DNA of 64,000 bases from Ignavibacteriales bacterium (lineage in GTDB: Bacteria > Bacteroidota > Ignavibacteria > UBA10030 > UBA8401). Shown here one piece after another: positions 47,042 to 51,423 of the stretch (the stretch's first letter is position 1; every line of letters begins with the position of its first letter). The notes below the pieces were generated by a model. That model was not told the origin of the DNA. It worked only from the letters and a program-made list of their open reading frames with translations, and did no database searches. Position numbers and translations under genes: made by a program. The stretch is from NCBI GenBank assembly GCA_037443785.1, contig JBBINR010000003.1:11950-75949 (forward strand), given 5' to 3'.

Positions 47042-47650
47042 ATGATTTCCGAAGATATTTTACGAACTTTTCATGCGTCGCTGGCTACTCTGGAAAAAGG
47101 TGAAACTCTTTTCCACTACGGTGATTCTGCAGTCTATTTTTACATTGTTCATCATGGGAAAATTAAAATGGCAAATTACAGCGATGACGGACGTGAATTT
47201 GTTCAGGGATATTTTACCGATGGGCAAAGTTTTGGCGAACCCCCCTTCTTTCAAAAAAGTGCGTATCCTGCTTCTGCAATTGCCGTAGAGAAAAGCTCGG
47301 TGTGGAAAATCTCACGCGAGAATTTTTTAAAATTGTTGAAAAATAATTTCGATATTCATCTTGAATTGACAGCAACGCTTTCCAGTCGTTTGATCTACAA
47401 ATCGACCATGCTGTCGGAGCTGGCGATCGAAGAAGCAGAACATCGACTTATAACATTTATGCAATACTTTGTCGGAAACAACAAAACGGAATCTTCTAAA
47501 CCGTACAAAATTCCTCTTACACGCCAACAGCTTGCAGATATGACAGGGCTTCGTGTTGAAACGGTTATTCGATGTATAAAATCGCTCGAGCAAAAAAAAT
47601 TCCTCACGATAAATAGTGATGGAAAAATTCTTTGGAAAGTTTTTCAGTAA
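47042..47650 (+). CDS. Crp/Fnr-family transcriptional regulator (candidate NO-responsive regulator)
   Basis: cNMP-binding fold plus C-terminal HTH RQQLADMTGLRVETVIRCIKSLE. Confidence 0.85.
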   Translation: MISEDILRTFHASLATLEKGETLFHYGDSAVYFYIVHHGKIKMANYSDDGREFVQGYFTDGQSFGEPPFFQKSAYPASAIAVEKSSVWKISRENFLKLLKNNFDIHLELTATLSSRLIYKSTMLSELAIEEAEHRLITFMQYFVGNNKTESSKPYKIPLTRQQLADMTGLRVETVIRCIKSLEQKKFLTINSDGKILWKVFQ

Positions 47651-47681
47651 TTTTTTTCCATTCGCCATAAGTGTATTTCTC

Positions 47682-47699
47682 TTATGATGTACATCATAA
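47682..47699. promoter_or_regulatory. Perfect 18-bp palindrome TTATGATGTACATCATAA, 73 bp upstream of the hemerythrin gene
   Basis: Self-complementary, seen directly. Confidence 0.55.
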
Positions 47700-47771
47700 T
47701 CTTCATGGTAAATTTTGCTGTACGTTTATTCATGATTGATTTTACAAATCCTTTGAAAGAATGAAAAAAAA

Positions 47772-48281
47772 ATGAGAAGACCGCTCCACAGTTTTTTCAC
47801 GGAAGATCATCGAAGGTTGGACAATCTTCTTAACCAGGCAACAAAAGATCCGCACAATGTTGAAATGACTTCGTATAGCCGTTTTCGCACTGGTCTGTTG
47901 AAGCATATTAAAATGGAAGAAACTATTCTTTTCACTGCTGCTCAAAAACACAACGGTTCTCAATTTGCCCTTATACCAAAATTACGATTGGATCATGGCG
48001 CCTTAACAGCGTTAATGGTTCCATCACCTTCTCCCAAAGTTATACGTGCGCTACGGTTTATTTTGGAAAAGCACGATCTTCTTGAAGAAGAAACCGGCGG
48101 TCTTTATGATGCTTGTGATGCTCTCTCCGCCGCTGATGTTGAAACGATACTGCACGCAATAAAAAATACATCTGAAGTTCCGGTTCACGCTCATCGTGAT
48201 GAGCCATATATTTTAGAAGCGACTCATCGCGCTCTCGCCAGAGCCGGATATAATTTCAACGATTTCAACGACCCCAAGTGA
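47772..48281 (+). CDS. Hemerythrin-like (HHE cation-binding) domain protein
   Basis: H/E-rich helical motifs (EDHRRLD, KHIKMEE, LDHGAL, EKHDLLEE). Confidence 0.6.
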   Translation: MRRPLHSFFTEDHRRLDNLLNQATKDPHNVEMTSYSRFRTGLLKHIKMEETILFTAAQKHNGSQFALIPKLRLDHGALTALMVPSPSPKVIRALRFILEKHDLLEEETGGLYDACDALSAADVETILHAIKNTSEVPVHAHRDEPYILEATHRALARAGYNFNDFNDPK

Positions 48282-48301
48282 GTTTTTAGAAAATTTTATC
48301 T

Positions 48302-48319
48302 TTATGACATATATCATAA
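48302..48319. promoter_or_regulatory. Near-perfect 18-bp palindrome TTATGACATATATCATAA, 71 bp upstream of the RIC gene
   Basis: Same TTATGA-N6-TCATAA architecture as 47682-47699. Confidence 0.55.
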
Positions 48320-48389
48320 ACTTTGCTATTTTAAATTAAGATATATTACTCCGAATTAAATATCTTATCTCATCACAAAGGAGTCATAT

Positions 48390-49124
48390 ATGCTTATCAA
48401 CAATATTACATCGCAAACGATTAAAGAGATTGTTACGAATAATTTCCAAACTGCATCTGTTTTTGAAAAATATTCTCTCGATTTCTGCTGTCGCGGAGGA
48501 AAAACAATTAATGAAGCGTGCGTTGAAAAAGGAATTTCAATTGATGCTGTTCTTAACGATTTAGCATCGCTTGGAGGATCGCAAGATAATTCAGGTATGC
48601 ATTTTTCTGAATGGAGTCTCGATTTTCTTATCGACTACATTGTGAAGAATCATCATGAGTATGTTAAACGAATGATTCCGGTTCTGTACACACATACGCA
48701 AAAAGTTGCAACTGTCCATGGTTCACACCATCCCGAAGTAATTAAAATTGCCGAAGCTTTTGAGTCTGTCGCTGCAGAATTTCAGCAGCACATGCAGAAG
48801 GAAGAACAAATATTATTTCCCTATATCATTTCATTGGTTGAAGCAAAGAAAACAGGTTCTCCATCAGGCCGTTCACCATTTGGTTCCGTACAAAATCCAA
48901 TTCGCATGATGGAACAGGAACATCAAACGGCAGGAGATGAAATGTATGGAATTCGTTCACTCAGCAATTCATATACTCCGCCTGAAGATGCGTGCACGAC
49001 ATTTCGAGTTTCATATCAAGAACTCCAAGAATTTGAAAAAGATTTACATCAGCATGTGCATTTGGAAAATAACATTCTCTTTCCCAAAGCAATTGCATTA
49101 GAACAACAACTACTCTCAAAATAA
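48390..49124 (+). CDS. Iron-sulfur cluster repair di-iron protein (RIC / ScdA / YtfE family)
   Basis: N-terminal ScdA_N motif DFCCRGG plus hemerythrin-like H/E motifs. Confidence 0.8.
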   Translation: MLINNITSQTIKEIVTNNFQTASVFEKYSLDFCCRGGKTINEACVEKGISIDAVLNDLASLGGSQDNSGMHFSEWSLDFLIDYIVKNHHEYVKRMIPVLYTHTQKVATVHGSHHPEVIKIAEAFESVAAEFQQHMQKEEQILFPYIISLVEAKKTGSPSGRSPFGSVQNPIRMMEQEHQTAGDEMYGIRSLSNSYTPPEDACTTFRVSYQELQEFEKDLHQHVHLENNILFPKAIALEQQLLSK

Positions 49125-49146
49125 AATACATGAAAGGAATTTTCTT

Positions 49147-51363
49147 GTGAAGAAATATTGGATAGGATTCGCTTCGGTTATTGTCTTTTCGTTTGCGGTG
49201 CTGGGGTGGGTTGGAACACGCATTTATCACCAAGCACCGCCAATCCCGGATAAAGTTGTTACGAGTGATGGAGTAGTTGTGATTCCATCAGGTGATATTT
49301 CAATCGGTCAAAATGTTTGGCAGGCATTGGGAGGAATGGAAGTCGGCTCGGTGTGGGGACATGGAAGCTATGTTGCGCCGGACTGGTCAGCTGATTGGCT
49401 TCACCGTGAATTGATGTTCATTCTGAATGAATGGTCACAACAAGAACATCAAAAATCATTTGAAGCATTAACGAATGAAGAGCAAGCACAATTGAAAGCG
49501 CGGTTAACTGCACTGATTCGAAACAATACGTATGATCCGAACACGAATACTATTACCGTCGATCCGGTTCGCGCTCGTGCTTTCGAATCAAACCTACGGC
49601 ATTACAGCGATGTGTTTTCAAATGGAAAAACTGAATATGCAATTCGTAAAAATACGCAAAGCGATCCGGTAAAACTCCGACAGCTTGCGGCATTTATTTT
49701 TTGGTCATCATGGGCTGCATCAACAAATCGCCCCGGCGATAACATTACCTACACAAGCAACTGGCCTCATGAAGAACTCATCGGTAATCGTCCGACAGGA
49801 GATGCGGTCGTATGGACGGGCGTGAGCATTATTGTGCTTCTGGCGGGAATTGGCGGAATGATTTGGTTCCGTGCATCGCAAAAAACTGAGGAGATTCATG
49901 ATGACATTCCATCATCCGATCCACTTCTCAATTCAGTGGCAACGCCGTCGCAAAAAGCCACACTTAAATATTTTTGGACCGTGCTCGGATTGCTTCTTCT
50001 CCAAATGGGAATGGGAATGGTCACAGCACACTATGGAGTTGAAGGGGATGGATTCTACGGAATTCCACTCGCAAAATTTCTTCCGTATTCGATTGCCCGC
50101 ACATGGCACACGCAGCTCGGCATTTTCTGGATTGCAACAGCGTGGCTTGCCGCAGGATTATACATCGGGCCCGCCGTCAGCGGTGTTGAACCGAAAGGGC
50201 AACGTCTTGGTGTGAATGTGTTGTTCGGTGCATTGCTTGTTGTCGTGCTTGGTTCAATGGCAGGCGAGTGGATGAGTGTGATGAATCTTCTTCCGGATAA
50301 TCTTTGGTTCTTCTTCGGTCACAGCGGATATGAATATATCGACCTCGGCCGTTTCTTCCAGATTGCCTTGCTCATCGGATTATTTTTATGGTTTTGGCTG
50401 ATGTTCCGTTCGATTCGTCCTGCACTGCAGAAAAAAGATGAACAAAAACCAATCCTCACATTATTTCTCATTTCAAGCGCAGCCATCGCCTCATTCTATG
50501 CATCGGCATTGATGTACGGCAAACACACAAATCTTGCCGTCACGGAATACTGGCGCTGGTGGGTTGTGCATCTGTGGGTTGAAGGATTCTTCGAGGTTTT
50601 CGCGACTGTGGTGATTGCCTTTCTTTTTGCGCGGCTAAAATTAATAAGTTTGAAAACAGCCGGAGCCGCAACAATATTTTCCTCAACAATTTTTCTTTCC
50701 GGCGGAATCATCGGCACACTGCATCATCTCTATTTTTCGGGAACGCCGACTTTTGTGCTGGCGCTCGGTTCGGTCTTCAGCGCGCTGGAAGTTGTTCCGC
50801 TGGTGTTTGTGGGATATGAAGCGTGGGAAAATATCAAAATCTCCAGAGCAAAAGAGTGGGTGCAGAATTATAAATGGCCTATCTACTTCTTCGTCTCCGT
50901 TGCGTTTTGGAATCTTGTCGGCGCGGGCTTGTTCGGATTCATGATCAATCCGCCGATTGCATTGTATTACATGCAGGGATTGAACACCACGCCGGTGCAC
51001 GGACATGCGGCATTGTTTGGCGTGTACGGAATGCTTGGCATCGGATTGCTTCTGTTCTGTCTCCGCGCAATGAATCCGAGGTTGCAATGGAACGGAAAGC
51101 TCATCGGATTTTCTTTCTGGACGATCAATGCAGGATTGTTTGCGATGGTAACATTCAGTTTGCTTCCGGTCGGGTTAATGCAAACATGGGCTTCGGTTGA
51201 GTATGGATATTGGTATGCACGAAGCGCAGAATTTTTGCAGACAGGAATTATGTCCACACTGCGATGGATGCGCGTTCCGGGCGATACGATTTTTGCCATC
51301 GGAATTCTTGCGCTGGTCGTTTTTGTGGTGAACGTAACGTTGAAAGGAACTTCGGAAAAATAA
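49147..51363 (+). CDS. Quinol-dependent nitric oxide reductase large subunit (qNOR, NorB/NorZ)
   Basis: 738-aa heme-copper oxidase-type 12+ TM core with N-terminal periplasmic extension; conserved His ligands. Confidence 0.85.
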   Translation: MKKYWIGFASVIVFSFAVLGWVGTRIYHQAPPIPDKVVTSDGVVVIPSGDISIGQNVWQALGGMEVGSVWGHGSYVAPDWSADWLHRELMFILNEWSQQEHQKSFEALTNEEQAQLKARLTALIRNNTYDPNTNTITVDPVRARAFESNLRHYSDVFSNGKTEYAIRKNTQSDPVKLRQLAAFIFWSSWAASTNRPGDNITYTSNWPHEELIGNRPTGDAVVWTGVSIIVLLAGIGGMIWFRASQKTEEIHDDIPSSDPLLNSVATPSQKATLKYFWTVLGLLLLQMGMGMVTAHYGVEGDGFYGIPLAKFLPYSIARTWHTQLGIFWIATAWLAAGLYIGPAVSGVEPKGQRLGVNVLFGALLVVVLGSMAGEWMSVMNLLPDNLWFFFGHSGYEYIDLGRFFQIALLIGLFLWFWLMFRSIRPALQKKDEQKPILTLFLISSAAIASFYASALMYGKHTNLAVTEYWRWWVVHLWVEGFFEVFATVVIAFLFARLKLISLKTAGAATIFSSTIFLSGGIIGTLHHLYFSGTPTFVLALGSVFSALEVVPLVFVGYEAWENIKISRAKEWVQNYKWPIYFFVSVAFWNLVGAGLFGFMINPPIALYYMQGLNTTPVHGHAALFGVYGMLGIGLLLFCLRAMNPRLQWNGKLIGFSFWTINAGLFAMVTFSLLPVGLMQTWASVEYGYWYARSAEFLQTGIMSTLRWMRVPGDTIFAIGILALVVFVVNVTLKGTSEK

Positions 51364-51380
51364 ATTGCGGTATTACAATT

Positions 51381-51423
51381 AAACTGTCAGGCATCGAAAA
51401 AAATGTCTGACAGTTTTTATTTT
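51381..51423 (+). terminator. Rho-independent terminator after the qNOR gene
   Basis: AAACTGTCAGGCAT-cgaaaaaa-ATGTCTGACAGTTT followed by TTTTATTTT. Confidence 0.75.

Follow-up and report, generated by a model that had tools for sequence, protein, structure and literature searches.

We investigated two 18-bp palindromes of the form TTATGA-N6-TCATAA in a 64,000-nucleotide stretch of an Ignavibacteriales bacterium (GenBank assembly GCA_037443785.1, contig JBBINR010000003.1, positions 11,950 to 75,949; this whole stretch is the window, and position 1 is its first letter). They lie in a cluster of four genes that encode a Crp/Fnr-family regulator, a hemerythrin-like protein, a RIC/YtfE-type di-iron protein, and a quinol-dependent nitric oxide reductase (qNOR). 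Judging by how the motif accompanies the regulator gene across genomes, the palindromes are very probably the cognate operators of the adjacent regulator, and the promoter geometry makes it likely that they mediate activation. By analogy with regulators that have similar targets, nitric oxide (NO) is mildly favored as the signal. Taken as a whole, an explanation that combines operators, class II activation, and NO or a linked cue seems to us fairly likely.

Under this explanation, a dimer of the regulator would bind TTATGA(Y)-N4-(R)TCATAA centered ~41-43 bp upstream of the transcription start, the bound site would overlap the -35 region, and RNA polymerase would be activated in the class II manner of CRP and FNR. 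One promoter would serve the hemerythrin-like gene, and the other the RIC-qNOR operon ending at 51381-51416. As inducer, NO would be most likely, or else an N-oxide or low-oxygen cue closely linked to it; the N-terminal beta-barrel would do the sensing, perhaps with the help of a cofactor such as heme (as in DNR and HcpR). The features in question are as follows.

47042..47650, + strand: Crp/Fnr-family transcription regulator, 202 amino acids (Pfam cNMP_binding and HTH_Crp_2)
47682..47699: operator 1, TTATGATGTACATCATAA, a perfect 18-bp palindrome
47721..47726, + strand: candidate -10-like hexamer TACGTT (TAnnnT), starting 22 nt past operator 1
47772..48281, + strand: hemerythrin-like protein, 169 amino acids (weak PF01814 match, under the Pfam cut-off)
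48302..48319: operator 2, TTATGACATATATCATAA, with perfect 6-bp half-sites and one nonsymmetric spacer pair
48342..48347, + strand: candidate -10 hexamer TATATT, starting 23 nt past operator 2
48390..49124, + strand: RIC/YtfE-type di-iron protein, iron-sulfur cluster repair (TIGR03652, Pfam ScdA_N and Hemerythrin)
49147..51363, + strand: qNOR, 738 amino acids (Pfam NorB_cytochrome_c-like and COX1)
51381..51416, + strand: intrinsic terminator, a 14-bp stem followed by a T-run, closing the RIC-qNOR unit

A first-pass annotation of this DNA had described the four genes as co-directional, and had placed a perfect and a near-perfect palindrome 73 and 71 bp upstream of the hemerythrin-like and RIC starts. 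All of this was borne out: the genes are on the + strand with identities confirmed by Pfam and TIGR03652, the sequences of both palindromes were checked, and the distances are correct (47772 - 47699 = 73; 48390 - 48319 = 71, each from the end of the operator to the start codon). Operator 1 begins 32 bp past the stop codon of the regulator. Both operators are intergenic. TTATGA-N6-TCATAA has no other exact match in the 64 kb and none in 100 dinucleotide shuffles, and no one-mismatch match occurs in the window. Matches with two mismatches number five, which is chance level (7 found vs. 4.95 expected), and we rejected them as weaker sites because all are inside open reading frames (ORFs) and each scores <8 bits under a position weight matrix derived from the sites of other genomes. 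The same matrix reached at least 8 bits at the two operators only (22.6 and 21.1), and its scan found no site upstream of 47042 that could point to autoregulation in the window. Among related loci, 20 have a site in the upstream or divergent region of the regulator gene.

The motif accompanies the regulator gene far outside this lineage. A scan of one genome per species returned at least 580 regulator-encoding loci, and the best 80 (~12 kb each), picked solely for encoding a relative of the regulator, were analyzed; loci are cited below by L numbers. These 80 come from metagenome-assembled genomes (MAGs) of Ignavibacteriota/"Chlorobi", from many Bacteroidota (including Chitinophagaceae, Flavobacteriaceae, Pedobacter, Cyclobacteriaceae, and Prolixibacteraceae), and from some Acidobacteriota MAGs. 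In 42 of the 80, all 12 specified bases are matched, nearly always directly beside the regulator gene. Over the 900,673 bp of these loci, the 42 exact matches compare with 0.25 in shuffles, and 81 matches at one mismatch or fewer compare with 6.6. When a site was defined as a match with at most one mismatch or an exact 10-bp core, an intergenic site was found in 62/80 loci, and in 56 such a site is no more than 300 bp away from the regulator gene.

As a check on circularity, all palindromes consisting of a 5-mer, a gap, and its reverse complement were counted in the 200 bp upstream of recurrent neighbor families. TATGA-N6-TCATA ranked first (49/70 loci), and the best unrelated palindrome was found in at most 4. 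The consensus of 60 sites is tTTATGAY-N4-RTCATAAa, with a spacer that is free except for the Y/R preference beside the half-sites, and the half-site T-A-T-G-A has A at a frequency of 0.95 where FNR and DNR boxes have T.

The reverse test started from the motif alone. In a metagenome scan with a 14-base form of the motif, most of the matches sampled (86/120) fell inside ORFs, and the scan is informative solely through its intergenic subset, in which 4 of 15 matches in coding-dense contigs adjoin the same families: a cytochrome c-NosZ pair, RIC, a pair of membrane ORF and truncated hemoglobin (together with the regulator), and nadAB-RIC. Two further short metagenome contigs gave the same neighbor pattern. 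The GC-rich Acidobacteriota and Kapaibacteria (L010-L018) have few or no TTATGA-type sites, and some carry yATGAy-N4-rTCATr variants; in these loci the regulator was miscalled as an antisense ORF, so that gene context is unreliable and missing sites were not interpreted.

Across target families the site lies 33-90 bp upstream of the gene. RIC stands behind a site in 10 loci, and the orthologous RIC genes of L001, L002, L004, L005, L006, and L201 all have an exact site 67-75 bp upstream. Other sites precede qNOR or cupredoxin-qNOR, and in 8 loci the site leads a clade II cluster (cytochrome c, Sec-dependent NosZ, NosD, NosF, and NosY; TIGR04246, 942 bits). Behind the site in 23 loci is an ORF for a 95-residue membrane protein followed by a 130-residue truncated hemoglobin, whose best match in the PDB is the group III truncated hemoglobin Ctb of Campylobacter jejuni (2ig3, E 8e-10). 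The hemoglobin has no Pfam or NCBIfam match and the membrane ORF is unannotated; in L020-L077 (Flavobacteriia) they form the commonest pair behind the motif, located either immediately after the regulator gene or divergent from it. Sites also precede a DUF2249/DUF1858 operon, a gene for a 412-residue membrane protein, and often the regulator gene itself or its divergent partner. No nir gene was identified behind any site, and Hcp was absent among the scanned site-adjacent families.

The closest relative of the window is L201 (GCA_028749215.1), whose regulator is 82% identical. Its gene order is regulator, hemerythrin-like gene, RIC, COX2/COX1/SCO1, and qNOR, and an exact site precedes each of three genes: the hemerythrin-like gene, RIC, and qNOR. 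The COX2-like, COX1, and SCO1 genes inserted there between RIC and qNOR (8209-10916 of L201) may encode an alternative NOR-type heme-copper oxidase.

With the site fixing their orientation, 49 target upstream regions were searched for TAnnTTTG, a Bacteroidetes-type box, with one mismatch allowed. The box starts 21-22 nt past the end of the site in 39 of the 49 and at +20 to +24 in 40 (one at 23 nt), compared with a shuffle mean of 2.3; TAnnnT occurs at +20 to +24 in 42 of the 49. TATATT is found in L001, L002, L004, L005, and L201 at the same offset as in the RIC promoter of the window. The center of the site is ~30 bp upstream of the -10/-7 box. At CRP and FNR promoters, an activator centered near -41.5 is in the class II position, and from the fixed distance between site and box we infer that the regulator is placed as a class II activator: if the boxes are -7/-10 elements, the site center would fall at about -41.5 to -43.5. 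With the motif accompanying regulator orthologs in 62/80 genomes, a fixed promoter spacing, and NO and nitrous oxide (N2O) genes as targets, the proposal in the first-pass annotation of a compact NO-detoxification regulon is supported.

The regulator belongs to the Crp/Fnr superfamily by its beta-barrel, dimerization helix, HTH_Crp domain, and the TGA-N6-TCA core of its operator (Pfam: PF00027 at 9.4e-23, PF13545 at 1e-08). An AlphaFold model (pLDDT 89.7) has the CRP fold with a helix at 103-146 and a winged helix-turn-helix (HTH), and the protein starts only ~12 residues ahead of the first strand. A fold search with this model gave generic CRP-family matches only (best E 1e-15, 19-26% identity), none of which points to a ligand. 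More than 1600 homologs at E <= 1e-10 occur in Ignavibacteria, Bacteroidota, and some Acidobacteriota; the subfamily is uncurated, its members bear only generic names in the sources ("Crp/Fnr family transcriptional regulator"), and no NCBIfam model scores above its cut-off for the regulator. Twenty-five members, with identities down to 57%, were aligned: the HTH segment TRQQLADMTGLRVETVIR is the same in all except for one sequence with a single T-to-A change, the recognition helix RVETVIR does not vary, and the half-site is likewise conserved. Met43, Met123, Met167, and His134 are invariant in the family as well, and one may speculate that they act as heme ligands as in HcpR. A second Crp/Fnr paralog of 239 amino acids is encoded in L047, L066, and L079, a few genes upstream of the regulator-nosZ unit and adjoining Usp and Cu-ATPase genes.

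Several observations weigh against the explanation or against parts of it. On the side of the sensor, the 25-sequence alignment has no invariant or nearly invariant Cys, the cAMP-contacting Arg82 and Ser83 of CRP are replaced in the alignment by Tyr and Pro, and His139 and His187 of DNR align to Ile118 and Met167; because the sensor is without these known ligand signatures (Cys, Arg/Ser, DNR His), we infer NO sensing from the target genes only. On the side of the targets, NrdD and the radical-SAM activase NrdG follow cupredoxin-qNOR behind the site in Pedobacter and related genomes (L027, L029, L038), and one metagenomic contig has the site ahead of nadA-nadB-RIC; the anaerobic ribonucleotide reductase genes hint that the regulon extends beyond NO detoxification, and both they and nadAB would be in keeping with a general low-oxygen signal as well. 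An Ignavibacterium homolog of the hemerythrin-like gene stands alone, without a site, and the gene is therefore best read as a lineage-specific member of the regulon. On the side of the DNA, the -10-like element TACGTT of the hemerythrin-like promoter is weak, 18 of the 80 loci have no intergenic site within the ~12 kb examined, and the sites in the weight matrix were pattern-selected, which makes the information content of its core circular.

The signal might be something other than NO. The protein would then respond to low oxygen or redox state in general, or to another N-oxide (nitrite, N2O), and would act as an FNR analog for Bacteroidota and Ignavibacteria that switches on anaerobic and denitrification functions. 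The Pedobacter operon that runs from a site into NrdD/NrdG, the sites that precede nosZ clusters elsewhere, the Usp and Cu-ATPase genes beside the paralog, and a sensor domain without recognizable NO-sensing residues are all in keeping with this. However, the lack of a conserved Cys excludes an oxygen-labile [4Fe-4S] cluster of the FNR type, and the commonest targets (RIC, qNOR, and the Ctb-like hemoglobin) are NO-specific defenses in the NssR, NsrR, and DNR regulons. We regard this reading as unlikely.

Repression by the regulator or by another protein, lifted by NO as with NsrR, appears very improbable. Operator 1 begins so soon after the regulator stop codon, with no terminator between the two, that a roadblock to read-through is conceivable, but the fixed spacing from site to box is that of class II promoters and leaves no overlap with +1 or the -10 box. 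Nonconsensus -10 elements without an evident -35 element, as seen here, are typical of activator-dependent promoters, and the architecture of the motif is that of Crp/Fnr sites and unlike the Rrf2/NsrR box.

We also considered the palindromes as RNA hairpins or terminators and rejected this, given hairpin energies of -2 to -3 kcal/mol, no T-run after either palindrome, and a spacer that varies. More broadly, the idea that they are chance products of an AT-rich window, RNA hairpins (terminator or attenuator), or sites of an unrelated factor is effectively refuted: a 14-base motif will be frequent by chance in terabase-scale metagenomes, as the ORF-internal matches illustrate, but no exact TTATGA-N6-TCATAA match is expected in the window, the excess over shuffles in related loci is large (42 vs. 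0.25), a kept half-site with a free spacer means that sequence rather than pairing is conserved, and the position of the motif relative to regulator gene and promoter box is fixed across phyla.

RIC (TIGR03652, 251.9 bits vs. a cut-off of 204.7) and qNOR (NorB_cytochrome_c-like, 2.4e-67; COX1, 8.7e-59) are separated by 22 bp, and since this gap holds no motif site, the two genes are probably co-transcribed as one operon. The hemerythrin-like protein belongs to a large family of ~168-residue "hemerythrin domain-containing" proteins, most of whose listed homologs have PF01814; a sequence search found no relative of it in the PDB. No hcp gene is among the four cluster genes. The first-pass annotation had called the cluster an island, which did not hold: the GC content across it (0.37-0.48; ~37-39% near the two sites) matches the flanks, and its position next to mdh-rpmA-rplU is common to L001-L003, L005, and L201, so that flat composition and conserved synteny rule out a horizontally acquired island.

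Just past the qNOR terminator, on the - strand, the segment 51422-55061 resembles an independent unit for redox or sulfur stress that comes with a sigma factor of its own. It contains DUF302 and OsmC genes (identified by Pfam) and, as read from the translations, two rhodanese-like ORFs, a thioredoxin-like ORF (WCGPC), a small membrane ORF, a zinc-finger anti-sigma-like ORF, and an ECF-sigma-like ORF. TTATGA-N6-TCATAA does not occur in this segment.

For the window itself the outcome is modest: a small NO-defense regulon of two promoters, and specialists would hardly be surprised by a Crp/Fnr box beside NO genes. What makes it a testable lead is how widespread the family is, how sharp motif and geometry are, and the tie to environmental N2O reducers. 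Much of the clade II nosZ in the environment belongs to Bacteroidota and Ignavibacteria. A metagenomic study noted an "NnrR-like" Crp/Fnr gene beside an atypical nosZ on a CFB scaffold and remarked that regulation outside Proteobacteria is little known (PMC6264515). Full-text searches, in a collection without most subscription journals and RegPrecise, turned up no description of the motif, of the regulator-operator pair, or of a Crp/Fnr-nosZ link in Bacteroidetes, Flavobacteria, or Cloacibacterium, so that an earlier prediction is possible. The mechanism would be that of an ordinary Crp/Fnr class II activator; what appears to be undescribed is the regulator's specificity, its lineage, and its link to clade II nosZ.

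Motif and fixed geometry together allow regulon membership to be predicted directly from genomes and MAGs, and the regulator is a concrete protein for binding and ligand studies. As a natural specificity variant, with A at half-site position 5 and Ile in the helix, it may also give insight into how Crp/Fnr proteins read DNA. A more far-reaching possibility, which we put forward tentatively, is that in Ignavibacteria, Bacteroidota, and some Acidobacteriota this subfamily (Cys-less, with RVETVIR and TTATGAY-N4-RTCATAA) provides the main N-oxide-responsive activator, not described before, of both NO detoxification and clade II nosZ, and that its sensing chemistry is unlike that of FNR, CRP, and DNR. 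In that case the motif could serve as a sequence-level handle for predicting when N2O reduction is switched on in abundant nondenitrifying N2O reducers.

Among known regulators, the recognition helices of this subfamily, CRP, and DNR align as R-V-E-T-V-I-R, S-R-E-T-V-G-R, and Q-P-E-T-F-S-R, respectively. The FNR helix is T-V-E-T-I-S-R, in which Ser212 reads the half-site T. The base ahead of the core is A here, G in CRP-type boxes, and T in FNR-type boxes; given the alignment of the helix to those of CRP, DNR, and FNR, the new base coincides with Ile at the Ser/Gly position. The published boxes are wTGTGA-N6-TCACAw, TTGAC-N4-GTCAA, and GTAAC-N4-GTTAC for HcpR, and TTGAT-N4-ATCAA for DNR/FNR (PMC1274295), and TTATGA-N6-TCATAA has only the family-wide TGA-N6-TCA core in common with them. 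The box is not of the HcpR or DNR type: the likeness to HcpR/DNR-type FNR boxes proposed at first reduces to this core, and the protein is only ~23% identical to DNR.

CRP differs from the regulator by its cAMP-contacting pair Arg82/Ser83 (here Tyr-Pro), and by Arg180 of its R-E-x-x-x-R helix, which is Val here; the CRP model NF008732 gives the regulator 73.6 bits against a cut-off of 266. FNR has in common with it the V-E-x-x-x-R helix pattern, the TGA-N6-TCA core, and probably class II geometry, but FNR ligates its cluster through four cysteines, three N-terminal and one central, and no such set is present here, half-site position 5 is A and not T, Ser212 is replaced by Ile, and the FNR model NF008365 gives 52.6 bits against a cut-off of 228. 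HcpR, known from Desulfovibrio, Clostridia, Bacteroides, and Porphyromonas, resembles it as a nitrosative-stress Crp/Fnr regulator without the FNR cluster, and HcpR of Porphyromonas gingivalis is a heme-based NO sensor in which Met68 and possibly also His149 ligate the heme (PDB ID 9DAY; PMC12750200). However, the cluster in the window has no hcp and all three published HcpR motifs are unlike the present box, and the 60 best PDB sequence matches include no chain named HcpR, although 9DAY has been deposited. Motif, gene context, and sequence led us to reject membership of HcpR.

DNR and NnrR are heme-based NO-responsive activators of nir, nor, and nos (as in DNR of Pseudomonas aeruginosa). DNR and the present regulator have in common a Crp/Fnr fold without the FNR cysteine cluster, nor and nos targets, the TGA-N6-TCA core within a palindromic box, and both Glu and Arg in the recognition helix (PETFSR vs. 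VETVIR), in which the Ser of DNR and FNR is replaced by Ile. DNR is also the best sequence match in the PDB (3dkw, E 2.5e-15), barely ahead of CRP (3.5e-14). It differs in its box and in its heme-ligand residues His139/His187, which are not kept here, and whereas DNR and NnrR are found in Proteobacteria, the present regulator occurs in Ignavibacteria, Bacteroidota, and Acidobacteriota, where it would control Sec-type clade II nosZ clusters.

NssR of C. jejuni, a member of the Crp family, activates a small nitrosative-stress regulon with Ctb among its members; how NssR senses the stress is unknown (PMC4601167). It resembles the present family in having a compact NO-defense regulon and a group III truncated hemoglobin as target, the Ctb-like protein of the Flavobacteriia, but the present regulon adds RIC, qNOR, and nosZ, and the likeness drawn here is one of function. 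Elvers et al. (2005) reportedly give the NssR box as TTAAC-N4-GTTAA, with a half-site different from that of the present box. By functional analogy, the nearest counterparts of the regulator would be DNR/NnrR, for the activation of nor and nos, and NssR of C. jejuni.

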